Assembly (NCBI GenBank): GCA_030867685.1
Contig: JAQOWU010000008.1
Span: 4,402,001 to 4,466,000 of the forward strand
Length of the DNA: 64,000 nt
DNA from: Wickerhamiella versatilis
Taxonomy: Eukaryota
Direction: 5' to 3'
Part shown: positions 26,337 to 59,658 of the stretch, piece after piece
Numbering within the stretch: position 1 is the stretch's first letter
Layout of the letters: every line of letters begins with the position of its first letter
Position numbers and translations under genes: made by a program
Notes under the pieces: generated by a model
Seen by the model: the letters and a program-made list of their open reading frames with translations, nothing else
Database searches by the model: none
Told to the model about the DNA's origin: nothing

Positions 26337-26639
26337 CTGTGTTTGATTTAATTGCGGGGAGAGCTTCGTAATCAGCTTTTGATCTTCAACCAGACAAATT
26401 TGAATCCTAAAACCATCTGATTATCAAATGCTTAATTGGACAATTTTAGCCGCATTCCAGTTTAGGGAATCATAAGTCAGTGCGGGGGAGGGGTCGACAT
26501 GAGCCAATGCCCTGTTGGCTCGGTGGATCCTTGGGATTATGCGAATGTCTTGCGTTAGCTATCTTATTTTATGGCCTGTGGGTGAGCCACGTTTGATCAT
26601 TAATATTTTAAGTTGCCTGTAATGGTAGGTCTTATATAT

Positions 26640-27731: not shown

Positions 27732-28356
27732 CACTACCAGTCTTCGTCTCGACGCTTCGTAATCCTGCGGGGTATACCCCCCTAGTTTTAACTTTAGTTA
27801 TATAATATTGACATATGTCTTACAAATGGGTCTTGCGACGGCGTTCAGGGTGACTTTCACCCTTGACTTTTGCATTTGATTCCATTTTTTTGGCTATATG
27901 CTTTTGCAATTCACTAAAAAATATTTCAAAACTCACATACATGTTCCACAGTCATAGGTAGCAATGAATGATCAACGTCGCGATGGTAGACTGAGCCGAA
28001 CCACGCTGGCCCTACAACGAATTAGCCGTTTCCAGCCTACGTCTTCATACAGCACTGCTGGTTTGTCATAGCCAACCGGGATTAATTAAGCTGTGTTGTA
28101 TCTCTTAAACCCTTATCCAGTATTTTTGGGTCCTACCAAGACCCTAGGTGAGTATCTCTTCTCTTACCGAGGTAGGATCCTAAGGGTCACAGTTTGCTCT
28201 CCCCAAACGTAAAAACAGCATCGTTATCTTCCAAAGTCTGTCTGATAACGGGAAAGTGTGGTCCAAGCATATCCTGACCAACCCTACTCACCGATTAAAG
28301 AAGTGGGGAACTATATAATACGGGTAAGGGTACCTCACCATCCTAGCAAATTCACA

Positions 28357-40699: not shown

Positions 40700-41878
40700 A
40701 TGGTCCATAGTTTTGAGTGGTACCTCTGTTTAGCCTCACTGTTCGTGGTACCGTGCACTGGTGCTTCAAGCGAAGCACATCAGTCCTGTCCTGCAGACAC
40801 TCCCCTTAGTTGCTCTTCTGGATCTGATGACAGCTGCTGCTATGAGGGTACAAATGGTTTGTTCCTTCAAACACAGTTTTGGGATTATGATCCATCAACT
40901 GGGCCTGATAATGCATGGACTGTACATGGTCTATGGTCAGACAAGTGTGGTGGGGGTTTCAATCAGTATTGCAACAAGGACTGGGAGATAGACAGTGCAA
41001 GCTCTACCCTCTCTAATTTGGGAATGGACGATCTTTTGGATGAAATGAAAAAAGTCTGGAAAAACCAGGGCGACTCAGATGATGAATTATGGACCCATGA
41101 GTTTAACAAGCATGGGACGTGTATGTCGACCGTGAGTCCCTCTTGCTATGGTGATAGTAACGATCAGAAAAATGTTGGTGACTTTTATTCGACTGTTCTA
41201 AAGCTCTACAAGACGCTACCTACGTATGACTTCCTCAAGCAGGCAGGAATTGAACCTTCTGAAGACAAGACTTGGAATATAGACGAATTCAGTAATGCGC
41301 TCACCAAGCATACAAATGGTCATTCTGTATACCTTGGTTGTGATGATTCCAATGCTATTACACAGCTCTGGTACTTCTTCAAGCTCAAGGGTTCAGTGGC
41401 AGATGGAACATTTCATAATGTAGATTCTGTGTCTTCCTCGACATGCAAAGATGGTTTCAAATATAAGCCAAAGTCGCAGAGTAGTAATGATGGTGGAAAC
41501 AGCGGTGGATGTAGTGGAGGAAGTAGCGGAGGAAGCAATGGTGATTCACAAAAGGGTTACCTAAACGTTGATGGATACGAGGGCTGTCTCATCAGCGATG
41601 GTTCATGGTACACGAGTGGTACATGTGCTACGTTCCACATCAATTCATCCTCAGGTAATGTCAATGTTAAGTCATCCAAGGGATCTTGTGGAATCCAAGA
41701 TGGTGGCTTTAAATGCGGTAGCGGAGTAGATGCAGCCGATTTCAAGCTCACAGATGGATATCTAAGCTATGATGGCTCATCCGAGTGGAGTGCTAGCCAG
41801 AAACCACAGGGACAGGATCGTGAATCTATTTCTACCGGCAGCGGAAGTGTGACATTCAAGCTGAAACTTAGTTCGTAG
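40700..41878 (+). CDS. RNY1: Secreted ribonuclease T2 with C-terminal extension
   Basis: Signal peptide, WTVHGLW (CAS I), WTHEFNKHGTC (CAS II), Gly/Ser linker, GCLISDGSWY..GTCA C-terminal domain. Confidence 0.92.
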   Translation: MVHSFEWYLCLASLFVVPCTGASSEAHQSCPADTPLSCSSGSDDSCCYEGTNGLFLQTQFWDYDPSTGPDNAWTVHGLWSDKCGGGFNQYCNKDWEIDSASSTLSNLGMDDLLDEMKKVWKNQGDSDDELWTHEFNKHGTCMSTVSPSCYGDSNDQKNVGDFYSTVLKLYKTLPTYDFLKQAGIEPSEDKTWNIDEFSNALTKHTNGHSVYLGCDDSNAITQLWYFFKLKGSVADGTFHNVDSVSSSTCKDGFKYKPKSQSSNDGGNSGGCSGGSSGGSNGDSQKGYLNVDGYEGCLISDGSWYTSGTCATFHINSSSGNVNVKSSKGSCGIQDGGFKCGSGVDAADFKLTDGYLSYDGSSEWSASQKPQGQDRESISTGSGSVTFKLKLSS

Positions 41879-42284
41879 ACTATTATATAAAGAGACTGAA
41901 ATACTGTCGACGAATATATCAGACTAGTATTGGTAGCAATCCCTTTGCACTTTAATTTTTCATACTGACCTGATGGTTCCTGCGATCTTCTAAGGATGGT
42001 TAACGAGTAAGAGGCAGCTATCATAATAACTTGCATTTCAATAGCTAATATAATCTGATAGAAACTTTTCCACTCCACAATACATCGTTGCTAAACTCTA
42101 GGTCTAAACGTTTTCTATTTATCAATTAAGAAGAGCCGTATCCAAAACCCAAATGTCGAGCGCCAATATACCTGATCTATCGCGATTTTATATCTGAAAC
42201 CGAGTAGCAAAGCATACTAAGAAGTTCATATTAGATGTTCTAAAATCTACGAGTGATACCTATAATAAAAAATAGATTATTTCT

Positions 42285-43340
42285 TTACATCTCAGGGAAA
42301 AGCTCACGTGCAGTAACGTCAAAATGTTTCATTTGAGACTTGCAGAACTCGATCACGTCTTTCTTATCAAATTTGTCTGTCTCTAGCAACCTTTGGCGTG
42401 TGATTTTACACCTATCCTCCATAACCTTTAGCCTGTAGTCTAACCAAGAAATACCGAGGTTCTGGATATCATCGTGACCCCGTGAGTTTGTTAGACATGT
42501 CATATCCTCTACAAAGACATTTCTTGGCCTCAGGCTCAATACCATAGCTATTCTTTCAGAGCAGTTGGATGCACGTAGAGCAGCATGCCTAATTTTGGAA
42601 CCCTGCAAAATTGCTATACTTCCTAATTTTGGCCCAGGAACCACATCTATGGTGCCGTCCTTTGTCATTACAGCAGTTTCTCCTCCCTGCATACCTGTAG
42701 TATCCGAAAGCATCAACACAGCTACAAACGGAACTTGGTCAAAATGCCAGTCATCCACTGGTCGATTGTCATAGTCACTGGCCTCTACATTGTTCCCTTG
42801 TGGTACGGGTAAGGTCGGAATATCGGACAGGTCGTGAATGCCCTCTTTCCCTTTGAATCCGAGTTGTATGTTGACATGCCCCACCTCAAAGTCATGTGCT
42901 GGTACGAGGTCAATGCCAACCACATCAGATATTTTTCTGAGAACACTAGGGTTGGTCAAGGCACTATATATAAAAGGTGAGCGCCTATGAGCATAGCCAC
43001 GAAGCATGTAGGGACTTCGAGGGGACGACACAGCATGATTCTCCTGAACAGGTCCAGATAAAATATCATTGCGCATCAATCGAACTGCCTCATTAGTGAA
43101 CATCCGAAACGGTGCAGCCGCAGCGAAGTCACTGATTCCGTTATTTGAATCATACCCAAAATCGCGCATCCCTTTCTTCCAAGCTGGATTGCTCATATCT
43201 AAGTGCTTTTTCTCATCAAACTTTACTTCTGTTGGTTTATATTTCCATTTTTTAATCTGAGGCGCCAGAAACTGCGCTTCTGGCTGATTGTAAAAGGTAG
43301 TATTGAGAGTCGGGTTTGGTGGCGTTACTTCAGCAGTCAT
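42285..43340 (-). CDS. Uncharacterised fungal Fe(II)/2OG dioxygenase-like protein
   Basis: DDWHFD (HxD), PFVAVLMLSD..GMQGGET, LQG..IRHAA (distal His), ERIAMVLSLRP (2OG-binding Arg). First ATG at 43340. Confidence 0.78.
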   Translation of the reverse strand: MTAEVTPPNPTLNTTFYNQPEAQFLAPQIKKWKYKPTEVKFDEKKHLDMSNPAWKKGMRDFGYDSNNGISDFAAAAPFRMFTNEAVRLMRNDILSGPVQENHAVSSPRSPYMLRGYAHRRSPFIYSALTNPSVLRKISDVVGIDLVPAHDFEVGHVNIQLGFKGKEGIHDLSDIPTLPVPQGNNVEASDYDNRPVDDWHFDQVPFVAVLMLSDTTGMQGGETAVMTKDGTIDVVPGPKLGSIAILQGSKIRHAALRASNCSERIAMVLSLRPRNVFVEDMTCLTNSRGHDDIQNLGISWLDYRLKVMEDRCKITRQRLLETDKFDKKDVIEFCKSQMKHFDVTARELFPEM

Positions 43341-43913
43341 TGGAGCTTTCCAAATTACTTTGCATTTCTTTAAGCTTCGCTTCCCAAGTATATTTATCAA
43401 TTACTTGTAGTAAGCAAAGATAAGCAGACCAATAACCGTCGGTGAACGACAATCATATTGTATTTTCACCTGCCATCGCCCCTTACTGCTTTTCTAGGGC
43501 TAGCTATCAAGCAATGAGTTCAAATATAGATAGATGTATTTACGAACTACAAAATTTCATATTCCAAATGCATATTTTCTATCACTTTTGACAAGATTCT
43601 TACCCGTTATTATTTTCGATAAGCCCCACTATATATGTCAGCTAGCAAGATGACCGAAGGCCGATATAGTCATGCGGTTCTTGGTTGCTGAATGCGTTCT
43701 GGGGCATTTTAATATATATTTTCAAAAGCATTCTCAATCAGTATTTACCAAATACCTCGGATAATTATTCAAGACAATTCCTAGGCAAGATAGCCCACTC
43801 TGTTGACACCTTTCCCTCATTCACTTAGTTTTAGGTTTCAACTGGAAAAGATGTATCCTGATCTTGCAAGTTTTTTCTTTGGCTCCCACTAATTAATAGT
43901 TTTTTGCGCTCGC

Positions 43914-44213
43914 CTATTCGACCTGAATCTCGATTAGTTTATGCTCCCAGGAGGATTTATCAAACGTCTGGCCATAAATAAGTTCCAGCAAGGATGAACC
44001 AGGATGTGAACCCATAACCGTATACACATAATGTCCACCAGAGCCCAACAATCCATACTGCTTTGGGTCTTTGTGATATTGCCCATCAACCAAAATTAAG
44101 TTCAGGGGTAGCCGCTTCACCATCCACGTGTAACCAGTGGTTGGATTTGCATCCAGGTTTAAATCGTACAATTCGCCTACTGAAACCGTAAGCTTTTGCG
44201 GAGTTGACACCAT
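43914..44213 (-). CDS. Chagasin-like cysteine peptidase inhibitor (family I42)
   Basis: 99 aa beta-rich protein with NPTTGYTW, GLLGSGG and Y(GQTFD) loops matching the three chagasin motifs. Confidence 0.85.
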   Translation of the reverse strand: MVSTPQKLTVSVGELYDLNLDANPTTGYTWMVKRLPLNLILVDGQYHKDPKQYGLLGSGGHYVYTVMGSHPGSSLLELIYGQTFDKSSWEHKLIEIQVE

Positions 44214-44708
44214 ATTAGCCGCTGACAGCAGGACAGAGAACGGTTAGGTCATCCCTATCATATTTAGGTGATAGCTCTGGTTCTGGTTAATCATCATCTT
44301 TGCCAACATTTGCCTTACGTGTATTATGAAGGTCTTCGCATCCGCGCTTATTATCGTAGGATAACCATACCGATTTAACGGAAAGTGACTCAGATTAAAG
44401 CGTTAAGTAGCTTAAAAGCCTGTAAATCAAATCATTGACTCTTTGTTAAGCCAATAAATGTTAGTAGGCAAGTGAACAAATCCCTATGCTTAGTTTATGT
44501 GTTAAGCTATATTTATATCTCGGCAAACCCATTGATTCCATCTATTTTTTTATAAAGTGTCATCTCTGTTCTTACCGTTCATGCAGGTCTGAAAAGCTAG
44601 CACACAGCCCCTTGGCATCTAATCATGAAGTATATATCACGTAAAGTTCAATCAGGGGGTACTTACTATGAAGATATGCGATTAAATCAAGCTATCTATA
44701 CAAATCGC

Positions 44709-46034
44709 CTAACGGCCGATAAAAGTTCCAGGATAAATATCATAAGCGGCTTGCACCAATGGTGCACGGTCAGTGTCGGTATGAATCTGGCGTGTCCACA
44801 CCTCGTTCATCATCTGGCGCTGCTGAGATTGGATTTCCTTCGGCACGACGTTACGATAAGTAGTAACACTGCCATTGACAACCTCGGCAATGAGCTCAGA
44901 CACCTGAGCAGGATCGTACTGCTGATGAGGGAACGACAGTTTGGAGTAGTCAAAGAGGCTTCTATCCTGTTCCTCTGGATACCAGAATTCATGCGTTTCG
45001 AACAAACGATCATTGTAACCCGTGAGAATAGGCCCAGGATTCACAGTTGCAATTTTAACGCCGTACTCACGTAGCTCTTGGTTAAGTGCGTCTGCAAAAG
45101 CCTCAAGAGCGTGTTTACTGGATGAGTATGCACCAGCAAAAGGATCGGTCGTCAAGCCCGCAACAGAAGAGACAATTACGATAGTACCACTTCCACGTTT
45201 CACAAAGTTGCGAGCAATCTTCTGAGTGAGAAGAATAGTACCAAATACATTCACTTCAAACTGGCGACGAAGTCGATTCTCAGGGATATCAATAACAGCA
45301 CCTCCCTCACCGATACCAGCGTTATTGACCAGAATATCAACATCCCAGCTTGCCGCGCGGATACGGTCAGCCTCGTCAGTAATATCAAGTTTCCTAACTG
45401 TGATTGGCAAATCCTGTGCCCCGACCTCACGACGTAAGTCATGGACCTCGTGTGTGGTTTCGACACTAGCAATGACGTTATATCCTTGACGGGCAAGGAT
45501 GAACGATGAGTTCTTGCCAAATCCACTTCCAGCACCGGTGATCAAAACTGTAGGTTTTCCAGGGCTGCCCACATTGCTGTCAACAACTCTTACTCTAACC
45601 TCTGAAGAGCCATTCTGCTTGGCGGCCACAAGCTGATACGCATGCTTACTGTATCCAACAGGGTCATACTGGGCATTCTTGACCGCGTAGAAAGTGGAAC
45701 TACCATTAATTTGAAGGTGGTTATCTCTGACAGTAAGCGGAGATCCACCAATCGCACTGATGGCAACCTCGTTAGTCAACGGCAGTACAGTGAGGTTATA
45801 GTGAGCTCCTGTGACATTATTAGGCAAGTAGACGGTCGATCTCGAATCAGAGTATTGGAAAGTATCACCATTCGAGCCTAGGAATAGGAAGTTGAAGCTT
45901 GGAGCTTCATAAAATGATGAAACGTTCAATCCATTCGTAGCTTGGTCATTGGATTCTATGACGAGACTCACAGGGTGGTCTGCAAGTGCTGCTCCAAATA
46001 ACGACAGCAACGAGAATAGAATGGGTATCAACAT
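44709..46034 (-). CDS. Chimeric secreted protein: Rhd3/Pga29-like cell-wall domain fused to a bacterial-type SDR
   Basis: Signal peptide; about 135 aa domain (SSFYEAPSFNFLFLG...FYAVKN..YDPVGYSK); then VLITGAGSGFG, WDVDILVNNAG, YSSSK, VNPGP.LTGYND. Confidence 0.82.
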   Translation of the reverse strand: MLIPILFSLLSLFGAALADHPVSLVIESNDQATNGLNVSSFYEAPSFNFLFLGSNGDTFQYSDSRSTVYLPNNVTGAHYNLTVLPLTNEVAISAIGGSPLTVRDNHLQINGSSTFYAVKNAQYDPVGYSKHAYQLVAAKQNGSSEVRVRVVDSNVGSPGKPTVLITGAGSGFGKNSSFILARQGYNVIASVETTHEVHDLRREVGAQDLPITVRKLDITDEADRIRAASWDVDILVNNAGIGEGGAVIDIPENRLRRQFEVNVFGTILLTQKIARNFVKRGSGTIVIVSSVAGLTTDPFAGAYSSSKHALEAFADALNQELREYGVKIATVNPGPILTGYNDRLFETHEFWYPEEQDRSLFDYSKLSFPHQQYDPAQVSELIAEVVNGSVTTYRNVVPKEIQSQQRQMMNEVWTRQIHTDTDRAPLVQAAYDIYPGTFIGR

Positions 46035-47131
46035 AATTCTATCGGTAACCTTCTCAAAGATGGGCTTTTAAGCTGAGGGGTATGGGTTAGGTTCATTGCC
46101 GCATCATTTGGATGAGACCAGAATGTGGGTGTTGCGCATCGAGATTGAGACGAGTGCTGCGATTTTGACGAAATTCATCTGATAATATAAAACTATACAA
46201 TTGAATATTACTTTTGGAGACCTACTTATTACTTTTCAAGGTACTGAAGTAAGTACATAGGATTTGTGCCCGTCAACGGTCTTCATTATTTCAGGGCACG
46301 GGTTACTATCGGTCAACACGTGAATACCCCGAAATACCTCCACCAAACATTTATTTTCTGTTTCAGATGAACTATGATAGTACTATTGTATATATTGTGC
46401 AGTAGTAACCGGAAATACGCCCCAAAAGTAAATCCTCTTGGGTTGTAGAGAAGCGTGGCATCAGGTTATTATGAAATTAATGGGTTAGGGTCTGGGGTTC
46501 GAGAATTGTTCAAGAGTTTCGACTCTCCATCGGAGATTGAGGGATTTTGCGGTCGAAGATAGATAATAGAGAGCCAGAATGTGAGGATGCTTGATTTAGT
46601 ATCTCATTATAATGAGTCCCAGAGAAGTATGTGGTGTCCAATTGGTCTTCTAGCTGGTTGCCCAAATGGGTATAATTAAGGCTAGGGCTTGCGCGGAGCA
46701 ACACCGAGTATACGTAAATCACTGGAAAAGTTGTTGACCATTAACCATTATGGAGTAAGACCACAATAATAAAAATCGCTGTATCGAATATTTCTTCAAT
46801 TCTTTCAGCTAACAAAGCTCTACACTCGAGCAGCATTGGATTCTGATTCGTATGATGTAAACACCGTTCGATTTTTAAGACTTTGGTGAGCGGTCCTTGG
46901 TTGCTACGTTACTGCGTTACGGTAGCTGATCGAAGAAACCCTAAAATTAGCCCACCAGTCCCGGGAAAATCACTTTCGCACATGTTCTGACGGCTATTGC
47001 GAATAGAAGGATCTTGGCTGCAGGCACCAAAGTCACTCAGAAGGCATATAGAGGTATATAGTGAGCACCATCCCTCTTGCTTATGGCACATTGAGAATAT
47101 AAACGTTGTTCTATGATTTAAAGAAGTTTCA

Positions 47132-47701
47132 TCAGTAATGAATAATTCCATTAGATGACGAACTAATATCGCTATTACTTATTGTCCTCACATGGTACGG
47201 TAAGGAGTTAAAATTTCCTTCTGCGACCTCGATTGAATCAGGGCCCACCCCGGTAATGAAAGCCGCATGGCCAAAGTTTGTCAAATAGTGAACACCGTCG
47301 TAGTGGAAAGAAATTACCGACCCAACTGCCGGAGCGAAATCCACTGTGAGTCCTTTGGACCTGGCGTTTTGCGCCCAATCAGTGGCATCACCTAAGTTTT
47401 CGTAGTATTGCGATGATATTCCCGCATCCTTGAGAATATTAGCCACGAATCCTGTACACTGTCCCGGAGGATAGCCACCAACGGAGTTGTAATAACCAGC
47501 TGTCCCTGCACTTTGTACATTGACCTCATGAGGCTGTGCATTTGCATCAAAATGAAATAGGCCATTGGAATAGTTTATCCATGTATTCTGGTTTATTTCA
47601 CCATCCCGTCTGGTAATTTCTCCGCTATGGATATCATCAGACCGTGGTGCAGCAAGCACGTGTATTGAAAGAAAGAAGAGATGAAAGATTGATGGAAGCA
47701 T
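47132..47701 (-). CDS. Secreted CHAP-domain peptidoglycan hydrolase (amidase/endopeptidase)
   Basis: Signal peptide; YPPGQCTGFV (Cys), LGDATDWA.NA...G.TV...PAVGS, FGHAAFI (His), VAEGN (Glu/Asn). Confidence 0.88.
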   Translation of the reverse strand: MLPSIFHLFFLSIHVLAAPRSDDIHSGEITRRDGEINQNTWINYSNGLFHFDANAQPHEVNVQSAGTAGYYNSVGGYPPGQCTGFVANILKDAGISSQYYENLGDATDWAQNARSKGLTVDFAPAVGSVISFHYDGVHYLTNFGHAAFITGVGPDSIEVAEGNFNSLPYHVRTISNSDISSSSNGIIHY

Positions 47702-49398
47702 TTATCGTAAATTTCTGTGTGCTCTTTGGTCATGTACCACCTATTTAACTTTTCGGTTACCCTTGCCGAACAAAGATGATCTGTTTCAGGGTATGGGGGG
47801 ACTGTTCTACAGTTGACCGTTACAAGTTTTAAAAACACTTGGATACCAAAATGCCGGACAGTAATAGGTGTTTTTCTGTTTTGGAATGGCGCTAATTCAT
47901 ATACCAAGTTCTAAACATCAGAAACTCGCATAATCTGCATGCCATGTAAGCCGTTGAAAACCTAGCTTACTGACATTGATCTCAACTATATACACGCGCC
48001 GATATGGTGAGACTATATTCAGTTACTCTCTTATATACCCAAAGTTTTTTTTCTATTTCGAACGGCCTAATATTCCAGTGTATTCTTCATCGCACAACCA
48101 GGTAGGTGGTCTGCCATAAGATATCTGAAACATTTGTACTCTAGGGAGAGATATGCAGATCCCTGTGGTGCATCAGTTTCAATTCATGTCTGAGAGAGGT
48201 TTCAACTTCTTATGAACTAAATAAAATGATATTCCTTTCCAGTACTTTTGCAGAATCTTAGGACATATGGCATGCTACGTCTTAATAAACTAGAAAATAA
48301 GGCAAGATCCATTATCAGAAAGAAATGATAATCGTTTAGTATCACAGAATATTAATTTGAAAATCAAGGCACTGTAGCAGAGTCCGATTCTTATCTTGGC
48401 AACGCATAAGTAAAGAGTAAGTGGTTTTTATAGTGTTGAAAAGTGGAAGATGCGACCCCTTAAAAAAACCTTGACTTCATATAAAACAGTTCACACGTAG
48501 ACTTGCATCTTTTTACGCAAGCCCGTAATATGTCGCCAGTAAGAAACTACGGAAATAGTAGAGTACTCTGACTGAGAAGGTTCATTATGTAATAGTATCT
48601 CATTATCTGGATAGCGGGAAACAAAGAGAAACAGAAGGTTGTGAGCTACTGAAAGTCAGCACTCTTATATAAAAATGGTTTCGAAATGCACCCCCCATGT
48701 CATTTTGCTTGGCACAGATGGCTGCAGGGAGCGCTTTATGTTCATAAGTATGTGTGTCTACACCTGTTAATATCTCATTATGGCGGAATTTTTAGGCCTT
48801 TTTCAGCGTCCATATGGTCTGCGGCATGGCTGAACATTTGAGCAAATACAATGAGCGATGGGGAGTACATTTGGATTCATAGAAATCTTATAGTCCAGAT
48901 AGGTGATTATATATATACGCGCTTGAATCGATAGAATCCGAAGTGGTAGATTGTGATACGTTCTGCAGTTGTTACTTCTTGTTTTTAGGTATATTGATAA
49001 TGCATGATCCAATGTTCTCCATACGTACAGGAAACCTGGTGAGCTACTGGAATTCCGTTTATAAATTATGCCGGTTGTTTGGCTTGTCTAACATAAAGTG
49101 TCATATGACAAGCAATAATTTAGAGCCAATATAAAAAGAAACACTAATGAGATTCATGAAAGCATTATTTGGCTCTCAACTGGCACACAAACTTAATAAT
49201 GGCCTCGCTCTGAGTACCCCAATTTAATAAACTCTCACATTGCACTTAAAAATTGATGACATTATCAGAATAAACATGCTCAAATAATATTCTCAAAGTC
49301 ATCTGCAACTCACTTTTTCCGTGCGTATCAGTAAAGAATTTTCTTTCATATTAGTACACTAAATTGATTTACTTTTACATGACCCAAAGGCCACCAAA

Positions 49399-50400
49399 CT
49401 AGTTGTGACCATTGTAGCCAGCGCCCACCTGACCGGGGCATCCAGCCCAACCGTAGCTTCTAGCCGCACCGGCATACATCTCAGTTCCGAAGTAGATACC
49501 CTCATGGCCACCCCAGTAAAGGAAATCGAAGATAGGAGCGATAGCACCATAAATATCACCTTTCTTAAGAGTCTCGATGAGCTGGCTAGTGCCACCAGCA
49601 ATAGTATCGATCGTAACAAGCTTGGGAAGCTTGGCAGCTGGGCCAGACCAGTCCTCGGACTTCTCGAAATATTGATAATCAGTGCCATTCTCTGGGTTGA
49701 TCCAGATCAGGTTGTTTGGATGCAGATATCCAAGTTCTGGCAAGAGAATCCACGGAACCCAGTCCTGACCGTTCCAAAGAGCAACGTACTTGTCGTTGAA
49801 AACATCGTTGAATGAAGCAGCATATGATGGATTACCAACACGGGGTGGGGCATACGCAACTACTTTCTCAACATTACCAAACTGTTTCTGCAAAGCAAGT
49901 GCACCAAGCTGGGAGATAGCAGCACCCATACTGTGACCAATCACGGTGATGTTCTTGCCTGGGTTATCGTTAAGGGCTGATTCAACGGTGTCCTTCACTG
50001 AAGGCCATGAAGCAACATGCTGCGCGAGGAAACCATGGTGGACAAGAGCATTCCAAGGAAGACCCAATGAATCATCCGCGAACGCATGCTCGAAGTCGAT
50101 ATCGTAGAGGAAGTCTGTCCAGTCTGTGTTGTTAGTACCTTCATACGCGACGACAATGCCGTAAGTGGGATCGTCGAAGACATCAACTCTCTGTGCGTAT
50201 TGCTGCGAATATGGAAGAGACTTAATCAGAGTGCTGTTAGCAACTTTCAAGCCAGAAGTAGTGAACTCGCTGGTTGAGCAGTAAGTAGTCTCAACCAGTG
50301 CGGCCAAATAGCCAATGTCCTGGGGGGTGGAGGGTGGTGAAGAGGCAGCAGTGGCACCGGTCAAGAGGAGACCCAGCGTACAAGCAAGTTTCTGGAGCAT
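49399..50400 (-). CDS. Secreted class 3 lipase
   Basis: Signal peptide; VVAYEGTN, VHHGF, VIGHSMGAA, YAPPRVGN, DWVP, HEGIYFG. Confidence 0.92.
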   Translation of the reverse strand: MLQKLACTLGLLLTGATAASSPPSTPQDIGYLAALVETTYCSTSEFTTSGLKVANSTLIKSLPYSQQYAQRVDVFDDPTYGIVVAYEGTNNTDWTDFLYDIDFEHAFADDSLGLPWNALVHHGFLAQHVASWPSVKDTVESALNDNPGKNITVIGHSMGAAISQLGALALQKQFGNVEKVVAYAPPRVGNPSYAASFNDVFNDKYVALWNGQDWVPWILLPELGYLHPNNLIWINPENGTDYQYFEKSEDWSGPAAKLPKLVTIDTIAGGTSQLIETLKKGDIYGAIAPIFDFLYWGGHEGIYFGTEMYAGAARSYGWAGCPGQVGAGYNGHN

Positions 50401-51494
50401 TGTGAGATGTATGTACAGTCCCCCGGATCGTGTTGTTTAAATAGTCGGCATGTAGCTGAACGATGTGCTACAACCCTTACCTTGGATCACGCTCGGCGGT
50501 AGTCCGCTATGCAGATCCAAATTCTACCGGTCAATTTAAACATCGCATCACGGCATGATATATGCCGGTCTGACAGACTATCACACCACACTGCACTCTT
50601 TAAAGACAGTCTAGCTCTTTTTTGTCAGTTTAGGCAAAGCTTAACAACAGATAAACCGAAATCTTTGCATGGTGGGGAACTCCGTGGGGAATTATATTGG
50701 GTTAGGTTTATACGAATGAGATGACAACCCCAACATAACTGCCGACATGGAGCGAATTCCTACAAGACGATTAAAGGGAAATATCCCGTCCTATACTATA
50801 GCATGTTATGCATGTCTGATTTTCCCCCGCTCATCACCTATTTTGGTCCTACGTTGCTTGCTCCTTCTCATAGCCCTGGCCGTTTGCAATCGGTAGATCA
50901 TTTATTTCTAAGCAATGACATACTTCGATACCAGAAATGCGTTTGCGAACCACTCGATGATCGGTCCGGTCGATAAACTTTCTCAGACATCATTTCTAAA
51001 ACAATATTGAGCTCTAGAAGCATACCAATATATCAGTAAGTCTCTACATATGTGCTATGTTCCGACCAACTGCACAAGCGTTGTACGTTACCCTAGTACT
51101 CGTGGTTATATAATATAGTCGGCAGAGCAGTTTACAACTGCATGATTTTCGTGCAAATCCGACGCCAAAAGAGAATCAGCTAATATCCAGGTGAGGTATT
51201 TCGGAGAAAGCACAGAAATAGTGAGGTTATATCTATGTTGCCTCCAGCACTCGGTTAATAGCCATTAACCGCAGACTAGCAACCCTATTTTGTAAGCATA
51301 AACATATGCTCAACGTATTAGATCATTTGTCACACGATCGACCGCAACGGAAGGTGTTTTCAAGCGACATTCTTACCTATAAATCCGTGCTGTCGATTAT
51401 GAATACTGCTGGTTTCGTGCAAATATCAACTTCGTCTTCTCATATTGCTAAGTTAAATCAAAAAATAAATTAATGAAAGGCATAAAAAGGAATG

Positions 51495-53048
51495 CTAATA
51501 CGATGATGCCACTGGTCTTGATATCTCAGGATTCTCCTTTAACCAAGCCACCTGTGCTTTCGCAGATTCACAGTAAGAGTCGACATTTCCGGGCATCCAG
51601 TCCGTTGGGACCTTATGCTGCCCTAGGGCCCAGTCACACGCCATATCACGCATCAATGTCCAAATTTCCAGCTCTATGTCGTCTTCACGGTTCAATGTCT
51701 TTTGCACAGTGGACAGAGACCCCAAAAACCTATTCTTTGGTATCTCGTTGTGATACCTGTCCATTATCTTCGCCATGTTTAATTTTAACGTCTGAAAATG
51801 CAACGCACTATACACGGGAGGAATATCAGTCCTTTTATCGTGAAAAATCTCATAATCCCGTTGGAAGTTGGGCTGTAACCAGGCAAAAAATTGAATCTCA
51901 TCCTTCTTCTCATCTAGAGGGCCCAATTTAAATGGATCGCCATACGTTTGATACCAAGGTTCTCCTGTAACATGGGCAGCCGCTGGCCAAACCTCTTTGT
52001 CACCTTGACCAGGAGCCCTCTGCGACAGGAGTGGCCACCATATATTAGAACGTAGATTGTAATAGGTAGAAAGTGCCAAAGACTTGAAGTGCTGGGACTT
52101 TTTGATGAACATCTGTCCACTCTCGGTGGCCATACCAGGGATTGCATTTTCACGGTCAATTTGCAGCAATCTAGTCCCATTAACTACATCAGGACCAAGA
52201 CTAATGTTGGTTATATCATAAAAATAAGGTGAAGTAGTTCGTGGCCAGAAATCAGCATTAAATATCATGCCATATTGATTATAAAGAGGCTCATCGAACA
52301 GTTTCTCCACGTCTTCAAGCATTAAAGAGTCTGCATCTGTATAGTATATGTTTTCAAACGATGAGCCCAGCAAAGCTAGAGCTTTGTTTACGTATCCGCT
52401 CGCCTTCATCTTCTCGTAAAGAGCCCCGTACATAATCTCTTGACATATACATTTTACATTCATATCCCGCAAAATACTGTCACAATAGGATGCTTCCCAA
52501 AGGTAAACTTCGGAAATATGGAGTTCAATCGGGATATTTGCATTAATAGATCGTATCCACTTGATATTAATTAGAGCAGACACAAAATGATAGCCATCAG
52601 CTGTCATAACGATGCCATTGCCTCGCACTTGATCTGGAGCCATTTGCTGCGGCAAATGCTTTAGCACTTCGTTATGTATTTCTCGAAGGTTTCTGATTTC
52701 CTTTTTGCTCACCTTAAGATACTTTCGGAGCTGTTTCGAGGTTGCGGGTCTTTTGCCATCTGCAGCAAATTCCTTTATGTCAAGACGGATTTCTCGTCCA
52801 TATTTCGAAAGACCTGAAACATCGCATGGTACATCAAGCATAGCAGGAATCGTATGCACAAGATCGCGAAGGGTAGCCGGTTTCTGCTCAGTCTCCTCCC
52901 GTGAGATCTCACTTTCGTTACTGGGCAAGACGGGCTGGTCAATATGCACTCCATCTCTCTCTGCTTTGAAGTGAAAAGTATAGAACAACAGTAGCAGGAC
53001 ACCTGAGAAAATCACGCATTTCAAGATCTTTCCCGGTTTCCGTGCCAT
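51495..53048 (-). CDS. Alpha-1,2-mannosyltransferase, MNN2/MNN5 family (GT71)
   Basis: Type II membrane anchor, GNGIV, KALALLGSSFEN, DAD motif, DFWPRTTSP, TESGQ, GQGDKE. First ATG at 53048. Confidence 0.92.
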   Translation of the reverse strand: MARKPGKILKCVIFSGVLLLLFYTFHFKAERDGVHIDQPVLPSNESEISREETEQKPATLRDLVHTIPAMLDVPCDVSGLSKYGREIRLDIKEFAADGKRPATSKQLRKYLKVSKKEIRNLREIHNEVLKHLPQQMAPDQVRGNGIVMTADGYHFVSALINIKWIRSINANIPIELHISEVYLWEASYCDSILRDMNVKCICQEIMYGALYEKMKASGYVNKALALLGSSFENIYYTDADSLMLEDVEKLFDEPLYNQYGMIFNADFWPRTTSPYFYDITNISLGPDVVNGTRLLQIDRENAIPGMATESGQMFIKKSQHFKSLALSTYYNLRSNIWWPLLSQRAPGQGDKEVWPAAAHVTGEPWYQTYGDPFKLGPLDEKKDEIQFFAWLQPNFQRDYEIFHDKRTDIPPVYSALHFQTLKLNMAKIMDRYHNEIPKNRFLGSLSTVQKTLNREDDIELEIWTLMRDMACDWALGQHKVPTDWMPGNVDSYCESAKAQVAWLKENPEISRPVASSY

Positions 53049-54039
53049 TTGCTGACACACCTTTCACACCGACGAACAGGAAGCAAGGGGGCTATACTAA
53101 CCCTTGTACTCCTCAAAAGTAGGATGCTACGCATTCTTGTCCTTCGCTGGTGTGAATTCCTCTGGAATGCTGTAGGAAGCTCTGTTCTCTCTCATATTTT
53201 TGATTGCGCAAGGTCTAATACCCATGGAAATCCCGCTGAATACCTGTAACAATAAATGAAAGATAGCTAAATTATTATCTGCAATTTTGCCCGTACGTGA
53301 ACCTTCAAGTTTGGACTACCAGCGCTGTATGGCTAGTGGTACGAAGCTGCGCAGCCTGCTACCATTTTGCGGCAAAAGATGTTGCGCCGTGGCCACAAAA
53401 TCTTAAATTGCTGATAATTTATTAACTAATAAATAAACTAGAACTCTGTAATTAGCCAATGGAAATGGCTACGATGGTATTAGAAAGTCCAGCAGCATAC
53501 CAATACTGTTATATTTTAGCAGGAAATATATAAACTAACCGTAAATAGCTGGGGTAGTCACCATTGTTCACTTATTCAATATTCTATATGGCATGTAAGA
53601 CAGCCAATACTGCACTTTATTTCTGTATATATGCGCATGCTACCTACATCGAAATAGTGATAAACCAAAACTTTTTGATGTCGTTAAGTACGCAAAAGAA
53701 CTCACGTCAAACAAATATAATATGAATCTGGTAACACACAGAATATGAAGACGTTCTACAGATGATATATATCTCTCAAAACCTCTACAGCGGCAGGGAC
53801 TTAATTTGATAACTTATTTCACTGAGTAAATCTGACTTGCGAAAAATACATGTTTACTCCTGGGCCAATGACATCCGCCCCACTAATACAAACATTCATT
53901 CATTATTAAGTCAAGATATCACGATCCTGATTACTAATAGTGTTTGTGATGGTGCTCATTCATTCACCATAGTACGGTGTCAAGATTGTATCAGAAAGAA
54001 ATAAGATTAATTCTGGCTTAATTTCTAAGTATGGACTTC

Positions 54040-57000
54040 TTAGATAAGGAAGACAATAGCTAGTATTGCCGCTGGAATATGGTACAAGCTACTCGTCATG
54101 AGAGAGGGTGCTGCATTAGCCAGGGCGACAGAGGTCTGTGATCCAGCTGGGGATTCTACGGGGGCAGAAGACTCGAAGGGTAACAACGCACTTGTGGTGG
54201 GTGATGAAGTCTCACTGTTGCCATTAGATGCCGTTGCTGCCACAGGAGATGTTGCTGCTCCTGAAGACTTAACAGGTGTCGTTGCACTTGCTACAGGAGA
54301 AGAAGCCTCGCTATATGACTGGGTATTCGTGGCAGTATTGGAGGCTGTGGGGTATGGTTCCGGCGTGGTGGTACATCCTGGTACCGACAGAGTGTCTCCT
54401 GGTGCACCGGTGTAGGTAGTACCACATACCTCAAACGTAGTACTATACGGACAGTACGTTGTGTAGCTAGAAATAACCTGGGTCACGGTTACTGGACCGC
54501 TAGGGAAAATGGTAGAAGCAGGTAGAGTCTCTGTTACTTCTGTTCCAACACTGGAAGTAGCTGGCAGAGTTCCACTGGCAGAAGAAGCTGATCCAGTTGA
54601 AGACTCTGAAGAGATAACTGGTGAAGTGCCTGGGGCAGTCGGAATTGGTCCAGTTGAAGACTCTGAAGAGATAAATGGTGAAGTGCCCGGGGCAGTCGGA
54701 ACTGGTCCAGTTGAAGACTCCGAAGAGACCACTGGCGAGGTACCAGGTGTAGTAGAAACAGGTACGCTACACTCAGTGTTTGTCGGAGTAATAGTTGTCG
54801 TAAGAGTAGTAGGCGTTAACCTCGTGAAGTTTCCTACCACAATTGTAACTGAACTAGTGATAGTGCTGGTGATTGGAGTGCATCCGCTGGAAGACGGTGC
54901 CGACGACGGTGTCAATGACGATACAGGGCATCCAGGTCCAGAAGGAGTAATAGTAGTCACGGAGGTAGTTGGTACATAGCCTGTCGAGGTACCGCTGGTC
55001 ACTGGCACAGAGCTAGTGATGGTGCTGGTAATAGGAGTGCATCCGCTAGACGATGGTGCCGACGACGACACAGGGCACCCAGGTCCAGATGGCGTGATAG
55101 TGGTCACGGAGGTAGTTGGTACATAGCCGGTAGAAGTGCCACTAGTCACAGGAACAGAGCTAGTGATGGTGCTAGTGATTGGAGTGCATCCGCTGGATGA
55201 TGGCTTAGACGACGATGGTGCCGATGAGGACACAGGGCATCCTGGTCCAGATGGTGTGATGGTGGTCACGGAGGTAGTTGGCACATATCCTGTCGAGGTA
55301 CCGCTGGTCACTGGCACAGAGCTAGTGATGGTGCTGGTAATAGGAGTGCATCCGCTAGACGATGGTGCCAACGACGACACAGGGCACCCAGGTCCAGATG
55401 GCGTGATAGTGGTCACGGAGGTAGTTGGCACATAGCCGGTAGAAGTGCCACTGGTCACAGGAACAGAGCTGGTAATGGTGCTGGTAATAGGAGTGCACCC
55501 ACTAGACGATGGCTTCGACGAAGACACAGGGCATCCCGGTCCAGACGGGGTGATCGTGGTAACACTAGTGGTTGGCACGTAGCCTGTGGAGGTGCCACTG
55601 GTCACAGGAACGGAGTTAGTGATGGTGCTGGTGATAGGAGTGCATCCGCTGGATGATGGTGCCGACGAAGATGGCTTCGATGAAGTTACAGGGCACCCAG
55701 GTCCAGATGGCGTGATCGTGGTGACACTAGTGGTTGGCACATAGCCGGTAGAAGTGCCACTGGTCACAGGAATAGAGCTGGTGATGGTGCTGGTGATAGG
55801 AGTGCATCCACTAGAGGATGGCTTCGACGAAGACACAGGGCACCCAGGTCCAGATGGCGTGATCGTGGTAACACTAGTGGTTGGCACATAGCCTTTCGAG
55901 GTGCCACTGGTTACGGGCACAGAGCTGGTGATAGTGCTGGTGATCGGAGTGCATCCGCTGGATGATGGCTTAGACGACGATGGTGCCGATGAGGACACGG
56001 GGCATCCTGGTCCAGATGGTGTGATGGTGGTCACGGAGGTAGTTGGTACATAGCCTGTCGAGGTACCGCTGGTCACAGGAACAGAGCTGGTAATGGTGCT
56101 GGTGATAGGAGTGCATCCGCTAGACGATGGCTTAGACGACGATGGTGCCGATGAGGACACAGGGCATCCTGGTCCAGATGGTGTGATAGTGGTCACGGAG
56201 GTAGTTGGCACATAGCTTGTCGAGGTACCGCTGGTCACTGGCACAGAGCTAGTGATGGTGCTGGTAATAGGTGTGCACCCACTAGACGATGGCTTCGACG
56301 AAGACACAGGGCATCCCGGTCCAGATGGCGTGATCGTGGTAACACTAGTGGTTGATACATAACCTGTTGAGGTGCCGCTGGTCACAGGCACAGAGCTTGT
56401 GATGGTGCTGGTGATAGGAGTGCACCCACTAGACGATGGCTTCGACGAAGACACAGGGCATCCCGGTCCAGAAGGAGTAATTGTAGTCACGGAGGTAGTT
56501 GGCACATAACCCGTCGAAGTACCGCTGGTCACTGGCACAGAGCTAGTTATAGTGCTGGTGATGGGAGTGCATCCGCTGGATGATGGTGCCGACGAAGATG
56601 ACTTCGATGAAGATACAGGGCACCCAGGTCCAGATGGCGTGATCGTAGTAACACTAGTGGTTGGCACGTAGCCTGTAGAGGTGCCACTGGTTACGGGCAC
56701 AGAGCTGGTAATGGTGCTGGTAATAGGAGTGCAGCCGCTAGAGGATGGCTTCGACGACGATGGTGCCGATGAAGATACAGGGCATCCTGGTCCAGATGGA
56801 GTGATAGTGGTAACACTAGTGGTTGGCACATAGCCGGTAGAAGTGCCACTGGTCACAGGAACAGAGCTGGTGATGGTGCTGGTGATAGGAGTGCATCCAC
56901 TAGAGGATGGCTTCGACGAAGACACAGAGCACCCAGGTCCAGATGGTGTGATAGTGGTCACAGAGGTAGTTGGTATATAGCCGGTAGAAGTACCACTAGT

Positions 57001-58812
57001 CACAGGAACAGAGCTTGTGATGGTGCTAGTGATAGGAGTGCATCCGCTGGATGATGGTGCCGACGAAGATGACTTCGATGAAGATACAGGGCACCCAGGT
57101 CCAGATGGCGTGATCGTGGTGACACTAGTGGTTGGTACATAGCCTGTCGAGGTACCACTGGTTACAGGAACGGAGCTAGTGGTGGTGCTGGTGATAGGAG
57201 TGCACCCACTAGACGATGGCTTCGACGAATACACAGGGCATCCCGGTCCAGACGGGGTGATCGTGGTAACACTAGTGGTTGGCACGTAGCCTGTGGAGGT
57301 GCCACTGGTCACAGGAACGGAGTTAGTGATGGTGCTGGTGATAGGAGTGCATCCGCTAGACGATGGCTTAGACGACGATGAGGACACAGGGCATCCTGGT
57401 CCAGACGGGGTGATAGTTGTCACAGAGGTGGTTGGCACATAGCCTGTCGAGGTACCACTGGTCACGGGAACAGAGCTAGTGATAGTGCTTGTGATCGGAG
57501 TACATCCGCTAGACGATGGTGCCGACGACGACACAGGACATCCAGGTCCAGATGGCGTGATCGTAGTAACACTCGTAGTTGGTACATAGCCTGTAGAGGT
57601 GCCACTAGTTACGGTCACAGAGCTGGTGATGGTGCTGGTGATAGGAGTGCATCCGCTAGACGATGGCTTAGACGACGATGGTGCCGATGAAGACACAGAG
57701 CACCCAGGTCCAGATGGTGTAATAGTGGTCACGGAGGTAGTTGGCACAAAACCCGTTGAAGTACCGCTGGTCACTGGCACAGAGCTGGTGATGGTGCTGG
57801 TGATAGGAGTGCATGCGCTAGACGACGGCTTAGACGACGATGGTTTCGACGACGACACAGGGCATCCAGGTCCAGATGGCGTGATCGTAGTAACATTAGT
57901 GGTTGGTACATAACCTGTTGAGGTGCCGCTGGTCACAGGCACAGAGCTGGTGATGGTGCTGGTGATAGGAGAGCATCCGCTAGAAGATGGCTTAGACGAC
58001 GACAATGGCCTGGTTGTTGAGCTAGGCACAGTAGATGTGGATGAGCTGGAGCTTCTGCTCTTGGTGCTTGTTGTTTTGACCATCGTGCTTGATTTGCCCG
58101 TGGTGCTTTCGGTACTGGGTATTTCGGATGTTGTACTTGTCGGAATGGGTGTGCTTGATGTCTTGGTGATAGAAACACTAACTGATGTTCCACACTCGCT
58201 GATCCAAGGAACTGTGTAAGTGTATTCACTATCCAATGTCGCAATGGCGCTATTCGCGCTGTTAACAGCACTACTCAGACCTGCATCACATCCATTTCTG
58301 CACTTCTGAGCGGCAGAAACAGTATTTTCCAGGGCGTCCGTAATGTAGATGGTGATCTGAGATAGTGTCTTCTGAATAGAGTCTGAGTTCTCTGCTACGG
58401 CATTGCCACTTATTTCCCCAATATGTTTCGTAAATTGTTCAAGAATATTCTCGAGTTTACCGTATACCTGTTCAGAAAACTTTTTGCTGAGACAGCTCAT
58501 AGCGGACTTGTCTCCACTCGTTTTACTCAGATCGCTGGCTGCATCAAGCACTTTGTTAAGGGTATCCTCCAAAGACTGGCCATCACCTGAAAAATCAACA
58601 TTAGAAAGTACGTCGATAGCGTTATTTACCGCGTTGCGATACTTATTATCATTGAGAAGCCAGCAACCGCTTCCGTAGCAATCGTAATTACCATCTGTTC
58701 GGGTTGGAGATGGAGCATTACTGGTGCGTGTGCCACTGCGTGCTGCCGTAGTTTGGGCCAGGGCAGTGTCTAGACACAAGCCCAAAGTGAGCAATAGTCC
58801 AGAGAGCTTCAT
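54040..58812 (-). CDS. Large GPI-anchored adhesin/flocculin-like protein (about 1590 aa)
   Basis: Signal peptide MKLSGLLLTLGLCLDTALA from ATG 58812, helical N-domain, Ser/Thr tandem repeats, YTTYCP motif, hydrophobic GPI tail. Confidence 0.92.
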   Translation of the reverse strand: MKLSGLLLTLGLCLDTALAQTTAARSGTRTSNAPSPTRTDGNYDCYGSGCWLLNDNKYRNAVNNAIDVLSNVDFSGDGQSLEDTLNKVLDAASDLSKTSGDKSAMSCLSKKFSEQVYGKLENILEQFTKHIGEISGNAVAENSDSIQKTLSQITIYITDALENTVSAAQKCRNGCDAGLSSAVNSANSAIATLDSEYTYTVPWISECGTSVSVSITKTSSTPIPTSTTSEIPSTESTTGKSSTMVKTTSTKSRSSSSSTSTVPSSTTRPLSSSKPSSSGCSPITSTITSSVPVTSGTSTGYVPTTNVTTITPSGPGCPVSSSKPSSSKPSSSACTPITSTITSSVPVTSGTSTGFVPTTSVTTITPSGPGCSVSSSAPSSSKPSSSGCTPITSTITSSVTVTSGTSTGYVPTTSVTTITPSGPGCPVSSSAPSSSGCTPITSTITSSVPVTSGTSTGYVPTTSVTTITPSGPGCPVSSSSSKPSSSGCTPITSTITNSVPVTSGTSTGYVPTTSVTTITPSGPGCPVYSSKPSSSGCTPITSTTTSSVPVTSGTSTGYVPTTSVTTITPSGPGCPVSSSKSSSSAPSSSGCTPITSTITSSVPVTSGTSTGYIPTTSVTTITPSGPGCSVSSSKPSSSGCTPITSTITSSVPVTSGTSTGYVPTTSVTTITPSGPGCPVSSSAPSSSKPSSSGCTPITSTITSSVPVTSGTSTGYVPTTSVTTITPSGPGCPVSSSKSSSSAPSSSGCTPITSTITSSVPVTSGTSTGYVPTTSVTTITPSGPGCPVSSSKPSSSGCTPITSTITSSVPVTSGTSTGYVSTTSVTTITPSGPGCPVSSSKPSSSGCTPITSTITSSVPVTSGTSTSYVPTTSVTTITPSGPGCPVSSSAPSSSKPSSSGCTPITSTITSSVPVTSGTSTGYVPTTSVTTITPSGPGCPVSSSAPSSSKPSSSGCTPITSTITSSVPVTSGTSKGYVPTTSVTTITPSGPGCPVSSSKPSSSGCTPITSTITSSIPVTSGTSTGYVPTTSVTTITPSGPGCPVTSSKPSSSAPSSSGCTPITSTITNSVPVTSGTSTGYVPTTSVTTITPSGPGCPVSSSKPSSSGCTPITSTITSSVPVTSGTSTGYVPTTSVTTITPSGPGCPVSSLAPSSSGCTPITSTITSSVPVTSGTSTGYVPTTSVTTITPSGPGCPVSSSAPSSSKPSSSGCTPITSTITSSVPVTSGTSTGYVPTTSVTTITPSGPGCPVSSSAPSSSGCTPITSTITSSVPVTSGTSTGYVPTTSVTTITPSGPGCPVSSLTPSSAPSSSGCTPITSTITSSVTIVVGNFTRLTPTTLTTTITPTNTECSVPVSTTPGTSPVVSSESSTGPVPTAPGTSPFISSESSTGPIPTAPGTSPVISSESSTGSASSASGTLPATSSVGTEVTETLPASTIFPSGPVTVTQVISSYTTYCPYSTTFEVCGTTYTGAPGDTLSVPGCTTTPEPYPTASNTATNTQSYSEASSPVASATTPVKSSGAATSPVAATASNGNSETSSPTTSALLPFESSAPVESPAGSQTSVALANAAPSLMTSSLYHIPAAILAIVFLI
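54580..54750 (-). repeat. Three 57-bp repeats (PGTSPxxSSESSTGxxxxA) within the adhesin
   Basis: CCAGTTGAAGACTC recurs at 57-bp spacing. Confidence 0.85.
54770..58000 (-). repeat. Intragenic tandem array: 20 near-perfect plus 1 degenerate units, mostly 147 or 162 bp
   Basis: Core CTPITSTITSSVPVTSGTSTGYVPTTSVTTITPSGPGC with one or two SSS(K/A)P spacers; counted in both protein and DNA. Confidence 0.95.
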
Positions 58813-59658
58813 GGCTGATCGTGGTGCTAGTCGCCTTGTCCTGTGTTTATAGTTTGGCGTGGGTTTAAGAGTCTTGAAGAGGGCCGTGCGCAGGGTAAGG
58901 CGAATAAGATAATGCATTTCACTGCATATGACAAAACTCGAGCTTCGCGAAACCAGGGAAATCCCGTGACACAAGAAACAAACTTTTTCTGCGAAATGGT
59001 AAGTTTTCGATTTTAGCAGCGGCTGGCATATTTTAGAAAACGTAATTATTCGAGGGGACTCTATGGTTGAGCAACCCGGGAATATGTGGCTTAATCGGGC
59101 AAGGTATTGCTTAAGCACTCTGGTGCATAGCGTTACCCTGCATGTAAAATAGCATGGGCAGAATGCGGCATTAAGAAATGAATTTGAGAAGTTTCTTTTT
59201 CTTACAATAAGCATTTATACTGTCAAATCCTAAATATCGATAACCATTATGATGATAGTCTCCCGTCAAAGCACTCTAACCGAATATGGTTCCTGAGGTG
59301 CCTGTTCGTCATATGAGTAATCGGAAAATCCCGCTGCAATGCACGGTCTTAGACGACGCCCGCTAATCGGTAACTTCCGCATCGTGGTGTTACATGTGAC
59401 ACTTAATGCTTGCGCCAGTACTATTCATTAAGCTTACAACTGTAGCGATGAAATTCAATGCTAGCGTTTAGAATTATTCATGTCTCGCCTTTTGGTTTAT
59501 GTGCCTGCAGTCTCACGGCGTTTAACCTCGATAATTAGCTAGATTGTGTTATGTTATGACAAACCAGCTATTTGCATCTTGCGCTTCACCCTAACCTTGG
59601 TTAGGCATTTACTTAATTGTAGTAAACACCTGCCAGTCTGCCAGCTGGTAGACACACG

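Follow-up and report, generated by a model that had tools for sequence, protein, structure and literature searches.

We found a gene for a CHAP-domain protein in a 64,000-nucleotide stretch of DNA from the yeast Wickerhamiella versatilis, hereafter the window. The gene is almost certainly real and of bacterial origin. Its predicted product consists of a signal peptide, a short pro-peptide, one wall-binding-type repeat, and a CHAP catalytic domain (Table 1). Judged from its sequence, the protein is probably secreted and active on peptidoglycan. By a modest preference, we take its main role to be antagonism of living bacteria, in which it would serve as a secreted peptidoglycan hydrolase directed against Gram-positive neighbors.

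Table 1. Features of the CHAP gene and its upstream region
Feature	Residues	Position	Strand	Remarks
CHAP ORF		47132..47701	minus	189 aa; intronless; N terminus MLPSIFHLFFLSIHVLAAPR
Predicted ER signal peptide	1-17	47651..47701	minus	predicted cleavage after VLA
Putative pro-peptide	18-32	47606..47650	minus	ends in dibasic Kex2-like site; low pLDDT
Putative remnant choline/glucan-binding-type repeat	33-60	47522..47605	minus	beta hairpin
CHAP catalytic domain with subfamily-specific lead helix	61-189	47135..47521	minus	
Cys82	82	47456..47458	minus	predicted catalytic nucleophile; sole cysteine of the protein
His145	145	47267..47269	minus	predicted catalytic base; from alignment with 2K3A and homologue alignment
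Glu161-Gly-Asn163	161-163	47213..47221	minus	predicted third triad residue and stabilizing Asn
TATAWAWR match, TATATAAG		48030..48037	minus	336 nt before ATG; sole match in 699 nt upstream

CHAP domain and predicted fold

Membership of the protein in the CHAP family was confirmed by comparison with Pfam PF05257, which matched residues 75-163 over profile positions 4-81 of 81 with an E value of 4.4e-14 and a score of 53.2 bits (cut-off, 26 bits). A preliminary description of this DNA had recognized a complete CHAP domain with its Cys, His, and Glu-x-Asn residues, and would have been overturned by the lack of a profile match. Both the match and the residues were found: Cys82, His145, Glu161, and Asn163 were unchanged in all 16 aligned homologues. 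They correspond to Cys57, His109, Glu126, and Asn128 of PDB entry 2K3A (alignment E value of 2.5e-8, on which the numbering was counted). In 2K3A, the first three form the catalytic triad and Asn128 is the stabilizing residue (PMC3448105).

The protein is predicted to adopt a papain-like alpha+beta fold in an AlphaFold2 model built from the homologue alignment (mean pLDDT of 84, pTM of 0.78), with residues 6-33 disordered and of low pLDDT. The best Foldseek matches were the CHAP structures 5T1Q, 2K3A, PcsB, and 2LRJ (E values of 3e-7 to 7e-5), the first three with a probability of 1.00. The ESM Atlas returned only leads scoring below 0.9, to bacterial CHAP clusters.

The window protein resembles the secreted CHAP proteins of staphylococci and streptococci (2K3A of S. 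saprophyticus, 5T1Q and 2LRJ of S. aureus, and pneumococcal PcsB) in its papain-like fold, YPxGQC motif, Cys-His-Glu residues with Asn, and cleft aromatics. It differs from them in being yeast-encoded and acidic and in having an uncharged signal followed by a dibasic site. CHAP domains of the LysK type have Asp-based calcium ligands (PMC4126393). Unlike phage endolysins of the LysK/LysGH15 type, the window protein has no Asp within residues 53-104 and hence no Asp-based calcium loop before the catalytic Cys.

Weaker Foldseek matches were to glutathionylspermidine amidases, which are among the CHAP domains, and the yeast branch has substitutions of its own. These facts would suit an amidase or peptidase of papain fold repurposed for a substrate other than peptidoglycan, such as food peptides, the wall proteins of the yeast itself, or a small amide. 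We consider such a change of substrate improbable. The closest relatives in both structure and sequence are CHAP proteins associated with the cell wall, and a wall-binding-type repeat appears to be kept. The aromatics flanking the cleft, Tyr107 and Tyr129 in 2K3A, are retained as Phe143 and Phe164, although P0002, the closest relative apart from alleles, has Ser at the first position.

Location in the yeast chromosome

The CHAP gene is integrated in a eukaryotic chromosome. Pfam assignments in the window include Zn2Cys6 factors, an MNN2-type mannosyltransferase, HsbA, and a fungal-type RNase T2, whose best named relative is from Wickerhamiella sorbophila (52%). The order and annotation of ORFs match 29 consecutive gene models of W. 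versatilis JCM 5958, from 00084 to 00056, in the available portion of Supplementary Data 6 of a 2026 catalogue of horizontal gene transfer (HGT) (PMC13376923). For the 11 genes looked up, the offset between midpoints in the window and on chromosome 1 stayed within 4,286,286-4,289,894 across 59 kb, and all 11 are located in the right "End" domain of that chromosome. The genes for a lipase (00062) and a short-chain dehydrogenase (SDR; 00063) are consecutive both in numbering and in chromosomal order (2602 and 2601), and their midpoints are 4,684 apart in the published data versus 4,528 in the window. The published gene models, as far as they were accessible, include none between these two, where the CHAP ORF falls. 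The catalogue relied on the NBRP/RIKEN annotation (PMC13376923). Because the CHAP ORF is absent from these models, the gene has neither an origin nor an expression score in the catalogue and no TPM value.

The preliminary description had named mis-assembly as an outcome that would undo its proposal. Bacterial DNA from a food metagenome might have been joined to a yeast contig, since all known copies of the sequence are in Logan/ENA assemblies, many of them from fermentations full of lactic acid bacteria, and no single listed contig covers the whole 12.5 kb of 41500-54000. Among the 20 runs listed, 12 contained 94% or more of the words in 46600-48200; eight of the 12 carried a flag as a possible source, and the remaining four came from study P3 and three further studies. 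Runs holding DNA of the CHAP locus were mostly labeled as food or food-fermentation metagenomes. However, in two runs from other studies, read depth over 41500-54000 was 188-236 on the CHAP bins, inside the range of 169-337 on the fungal neighbors, and neither of two runs examined had a contig joint or loose end between 45770 and 48692. Alleles of the CHAP gene and of five neighbors (aldehyde dehydrogenase [ALDH], acyl-CoA dehydrogenase, chagasin, SDR, and lipase) had longest contigs of the same lengths (86550, 48149, and 52829), which implies linkage in three assemblies; intact alleles thus appear to share contigs with the neighbors in three haplotypes. The GC content of the gene (0.44), its GC3 (0.39), and its codon use were inside the range of the window, as expected of an ameliorated gene. 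Finally, the best bacterial-type relative is just 54% identical and has a different N terminus. We therefore regard an assembly artifact as extremely unlikely.

No mobile-element-type repeats were found flanking the CHAP gene, and scans of the locus for sigma-70 promoters and terminators remained at chance level. The upstream TATAWAWR match is weak, with about 0.3 expected by chance as estimated from base composition. A 17-nt element with a core resembling TATC[TA]CA[TG]TAT, either a regulatory motif or a chance occurrence, is present in three copies upstream of the gene (48335, 48591, and 48766) and one downstream (46595). Runs X10 and X12 contained two haplotypes over 41500-54000, several percent apart and at a depth ratio of roughly 2:1 throughout. 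Most window genes had three protein haplotypes, which could come from mixed strains or from a hybrid or polyploid population.

Bacterial ancestry and remodeling of the N terminus

A homologue search of 1.84 billion representatives (E values up to 0.001) returned 507 matches. Two of these exceeded 200 bits: P0001 (97%), an allele, and P0002 (62%), a 229-aa protein found only in Logan and 67% identical to the window protein over the CHAP region. The next match, P0003 (54%), came from ENA; it has a Lys-rich KxYKxGKxW-like signal, and its Pfam CHAP match (E value of 1.5e-4) lies just under the cut-off. The named rows after P0003 belonged to Weissella minor, Furfurilactobacillus, Leuconostoc, Lactococcus lactis, and Lactobacillus-like genomes.

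For the window protein and the best 70 of the 150 listed matches, we built a tree based on the CHAP region (71 rows, 138 columns; bootstrap not fully settled). The window protein, P0001, and P0002 grouped at 100/96, and the three joined P0003 at 100/99. All four were placed inside a 22-row branch (90/95), in which each of the 10 rows with a taxon name in its cluster was from Lactobacillaceae or Lactococcus. In a second tree of the best 60, from which four long or chimeric rows were dropped, the yeast rows were sister to P0003 (99 SH-aLRT). An AU test did not reject a topology in which 17 bacterial-type rows grouped without the yeast rows (p of 0.083, 137 columns); under either topology, the yeast rows stay among bacterial sequences. 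A bacterial origin within a lactic-acid-bacterial subfamily is thus well supported, and the exact nesting of the yeast proteins in the bacterial clade less well so. Together with the fungal locus, this placement bears out the earlier proposal of a bacterial enzyme captured by a yeast. The phylogeny that was to reveal the donor led as far as the lactic-acid-bacterial group, but GTDB genomes yielded no donor genome.

The window protein shares with P0003 and with C-terminal CHAP proteins of lactic acid bacteria (W. minor, Leuconostoc gasicomitatum/inhae, Furfurilactobacillus rossiae/milii, and L. lactis) a signature that runs from AGxxG[FY]xNG..GYP..QCT.FV...L to GIIH[FY]. Several of the bacterial proteins also have wall-binding repeats directly before the domain. 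Unlike the window protein, they have Lys/Arg-rich or KxYKxGKxW-like signals and carry larger targeting modules, namely, LysM domains, the zoocin A target-recognition domain, or repeat arrays. The zoocin A domain was found in 4 of 23 bacterial relatives scanned, in 3 of them above the cut-off.

None of 59 pattern matches to P0003 in GTDB genomes was confirmed. With alignment A3, six of 55 were confirmed: two were weak, and the other four were loci of Furfurilactobacillus (46-48%). At one of these six loci (L002), the gene stood alone amid housekeeping genes, with no obvious immunity gene visible by eye. Among plasmids, 504 records matched, all under 60% and none covering 80%. A phage origin was rejected: 5 of 50,697 phage records matched, at 37% identity, and four of these were annotated as tail proteins. 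None of 53 pattern matches in viral contigs was confirmed. A scan of JGI metagenomes confirmed one of 384 matches (42% identity), which, to the extent examined, does not belong to a yeast locus. P0002 appears yeast-like by its N terminus and position in the tree. Only two yeast-like CHAP proteins were found despite many RNase T2 proteins closer than that of W. sorbophila, which points to a narrow distribution.

The N terminus is consistent with a secretory refit in which a bacterial signal would have been swapped for an uncharged one followed by a dibasic site. We assigned the signal peptide and the Kex2 site by hydropathy, charge, and conservation. Peak hydropathy over 10 residues was 2.35 in the signal region, compared to 2.15 in the lipase and 2.48 in the RNase T2 of the window. 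The first 12 residues contain no Lys or Arg in any of the three yeast-like rows, as opposed to one to four in all 13 bacterial-type relatives examined. A hydrophobic, low-charge start was also present in 11 other rows of the 150 listed and is thus not specific to eukaryotes. The dibasic pair is RR31-32 in the window protein, KR in its other alleles, and RR27-28 in P0002, so that the site is kept through an R-to-K change; it abuts bacterial-derived sequence in both yeast-like lineages. By chance alone, about 9% of stretches of 20 residues would contain a dibasic pair. The eukaryotic-style N terminus noted earlier is in accord with these values. Of the pro-region with an RR site that had been described next to it, the putative pro-peptide ending at RR31-32 stands, and residues 33-52 appear to be the remnant of a repeat.

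These 20 residues matched the repeats of F. rossiae P0007 in pairwise comparisons (E values of 5e-4, 0.007, and 0.041). In the structural model, the remnant forms strands at residues 40-44, 47-51, and 57-60 (block pLDDT of 88-90), and Asn43 within it is the sole N-glycosylation sequon of the protein. At the same position, P0002 is longer by 44 residues, for which a match to the repeats of P0013 was found (E value of 7e-4); against choline-binding repeat profiles, P0002 scored below the cut-off (E values of 0.026, 0.18, and 2.2). The Pfam repeats PF19127, PF19085, and PF01473 had no match in the window protein, and a crude home-made repeat profile scored no better than shuffles. From these alignments, the window lineage appears to have lost about two repeats, with one kept versus about three in P0002.

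The catalytic domain has a pI of 5.0, versus 9.1 in P0003, and is basic in 5 of 7 bacterial relatives measured. The seven other putative secreted proteins of the window all have a pI of 4.1-5.4. We counted the acidification in favor of a secreted enzyme because the pI now resembles theirs.

Differences between alleles avoid the catalytic domain. The window protein and P0001 differ by six changes in residues 1-59 and by none in residues 60-189 (Fisher p of 0.0008). All seven neighbors compared differ by about 2-8% between haplotypes; if the CHAP core diverged like them, 0 changes in 130 residues between the two main haplotypes would have a probability of about 0.02. The frame is open and the triad intact in all six cluster members and in P0002.

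This conservation, including the identity to P0002 over the CHAP region, argues against a near-silent or decaying passenger with little present function, which we consider improbable. Such a passenger would fit the gene's absence from the annotation behind the RNA-seq data and its location, since chromosome "end" domains are described as having low expression and relaxed selection on foreign genes. The same location counts against an antagonistic role, as does the finding that none of the 20 runs listed for the CHAP locus is recorded as RNA. A T at position -3 of the ATG and an out-of-frame ATG 32 nt upstream also suit a passenger, but the latter is unremarkable because 12 of 30 window ORFs have an ATG in the 50 nt upstream. 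Substitutions at conserved positions or close to them in P0154 (W41S and S166F) and P0155 (D105Y) weigh against the antagonistic role as well. In addition, a contig of run X19 lacks 11 letters within 47061-47575, a span that includes 71 nt of the 3' flank; the gap would break that allele if it fell within the ORF, which would suit a passenger too. A CHAP piece in run X19, which may be RNA, was given no weight either for or against expression, since contig depth does not rank genes.

Proposed function and neighboring genes

We propose that a lactic acid bacterium was the source of the gene and that the transfer preceded the divergence from a sister lineage. Following established yeast secretory biology, the product would be imported into the ER, lose its signal peptide after Ala17, and be cut by Kex2 after Arg31-Arg32, which would leave about 157 aa as the released mature enzyme (16.8 kDa, pI 4.7). 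Cys82, activated by His145 and Glu161, would then cut a stem-peptide or cross-bridge amide of Gram-positive peptidoglycan, with the one retained repeat helping weakly. Yeasts have no peptidoglycan, and the target would therefore be external. W. versatilis lives in salty fermentations alongside lactic acid bacteria. Its Gram-positive neighbors there might be weakened or lysed, plausibly by the joint action of the CHAP protein and the product of a lysozyme-family gene, 00097, which is located in the same chromosome end about 72 kb from the CHAP gene. Gene 00097 is listed as a PANTHER "lysozyme" of Pezizomycotina origin, expressed at 41-274 TPM, and is cited as a competitive-fitness gene (PMC13376923). 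More tentatively, and with more doubt than confidence, the CHAP protein may be an interbacterial lysin captured from lactic acid bacteria, made Kex2-processed, acid-adapted, and secreted, and turned on the donor group; with the lysozyme-family protein, it would form a two-bond anti-Gram-positive kit that shapes succession in fermented foods.

A secreted, active enzyme might instead be nutritional, digesting dead or autolysed walls for amino acids and amino sugars with no killing. The loss of most binding repeats and the acidic surface, both of which count against antagonism, would limit access to intact walls. The neighborhood is rich in putative secreted scavengers (a nuclease, the RNase T2, the lipase, and a GH5 protein), and over 80% of annotated foreign genes in the clade encode metabolic enzymes (PMC13376923). 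However, some CHAP-type catalytic domains are described as functioning without a binding domain, and the activity of the PlyC CHAP domain as not governed by net charge alone. Several bacterial relatives carry the zoocin A target-recognition domain, a module of a bacteriolytic exoenzyme. Killing and feeding can also coexist. We consider a purely nutritional role unlikely, though it is the most serious competitor of the antagonistic one.

Capture of wall hydrolases by eukaryotes is already an established kind of event. The Dae amidases of ticks and mites are interbacterial wall-cutting cysteine amidases that these eukaryotes domesticated with new signal peptides; they descend from effectors of Gram-negative type VI secretion systems, and their hosts are animals. 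Trichomonas vaginalis uses captured bacterial papain-fold enzymes, NlpC/P60 hydrolases, to control lactobacilli (PMC10461829). There, nine genes in two clans encode enzymes of proven activity, as opposed to one CHAP gene known from sequence in the window. Saprolegnia parasitica has CHAP genes in seven copies, predicted to be secreted and proposed to be of bacterial acquisition (PMC3681718). It is an oomycete, the donor is unresolved in the table of that study, and the tree and the host suggest an event independent of the yeast one. Fungal GH25 muramidases, among which we count the product of 00097, were acquired horizontally and are bacteriolytic in Aspergillus nidulans (PMC4241558). These are glycosidases that act on the glycan chain, ancient in Dikarya, and reached W. 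versatilis from Pezizomycotina, whereas the CHAP protein is of bacterial origin and would cut a peptide or amide bond.

In the full-text literature outside subscription journals, no account of a budding-yeast CHAP enzyme came to light, and the examined portions of the supplements of PMC13376923, PMC5897096, and PMC11140947 contain no CHAP entry. Nor was there a paper on antibacterial action of W. versatilis among those listed, which counts against antagonism. If our reading is correct, this would be, as far as the literature was searched, the first functional CHAP lysin from a budding yeast. Foreign genes of Wickerhamiella/Starmerella yeasts are described as mostly metabolic (PMC13376923); a secreted wall-cutting enzyme would add a directly testable example of a weapon captured across kingdoms by a food yeast that can be cultured. 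It could also provide a food-derived, yeast-secretable lysin against Gram-positive spoilage bacteria.

An ORF at 43914-44213 (minus strand) encodes a protein without a signal peptide from the chagasin family (I42; 60 bits), whose members inhibit papain-like cysteine peptidases. It is intact in three haplotypes that are 7-8% divergent. The ORF is 2.9 kb from the CHAP gene, and a link to a papain-fold enzyme is speculation from adjacency. It too is absent from the published models, as far as these were available, between 00063 and 00064. The annotation behind the best current HGT catalogue for W. versatilis thus misses short foreign genes, namely, the CHAP ORF and the chagasin-like ORF.

The ORF at 44709-46034 (minus strand) is chimeric, joining a signal peptide, a PhiA/DUF7907-like fungal cell-wall domain (Atlas score of 0.93), and an in-frame short-chain dehydrogenase. 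The dehydrogenase, 00063, is classed as HGT from bacteria (PMC13376923). The fusion is present in two haplotypes (P0204 and P0205); in a third (P0206 and P0207), a frameshift separates the parts. With this polymorphic fusion, an NAD(P)-dependent enzyme would enter the secretory pathway.

Adjoining the aldehyde dehydrogenase gene is a 695-aa ORF (15037-17124, minus strand) with Hom_end and Hom_end_hint domains, which we take to be an HO/WHO-like homing-endonuclease gene. It corresponds to 00077, unannotated and weakly expressed in the published table (PMC13376923). The region 19354-29217 contains genes for three 3-hydroxyacyl-CoA dehydrogenases, an acyl-CoA dehydrogenase, an APH-family (ACAD10-like) protein, and a hydrolase. 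Most of the corresponding models, 00070-00075, fall together in the last three of six expression columns, and one is listed as HGT from bacteria (PMC13376923). The region looks like a co-regulated beta-oxidation-type cluster. Two related ORFs (3492-4277, and 42285-43340 on the minus strand), without a Pfam family, correspond to 00082 and 00064, which are Pezizomycotina-derived and "YALI0B19030p"-like. The latter contains a DDWHFD...H motif, which we assume to be suggestive of a 2OG-Fe(II) oxygenase. A 1,724-aa ORF at 54040-59214 (minus strand) has no Pfam match and a strong composition skew, with a GC content of about 0.55 over 55-58 kb. Its product is probably a wall protein of the repetitive adhesin or mucin-like type, and it corresponds to two published models, 00059 and 00060 (PMC13376923).
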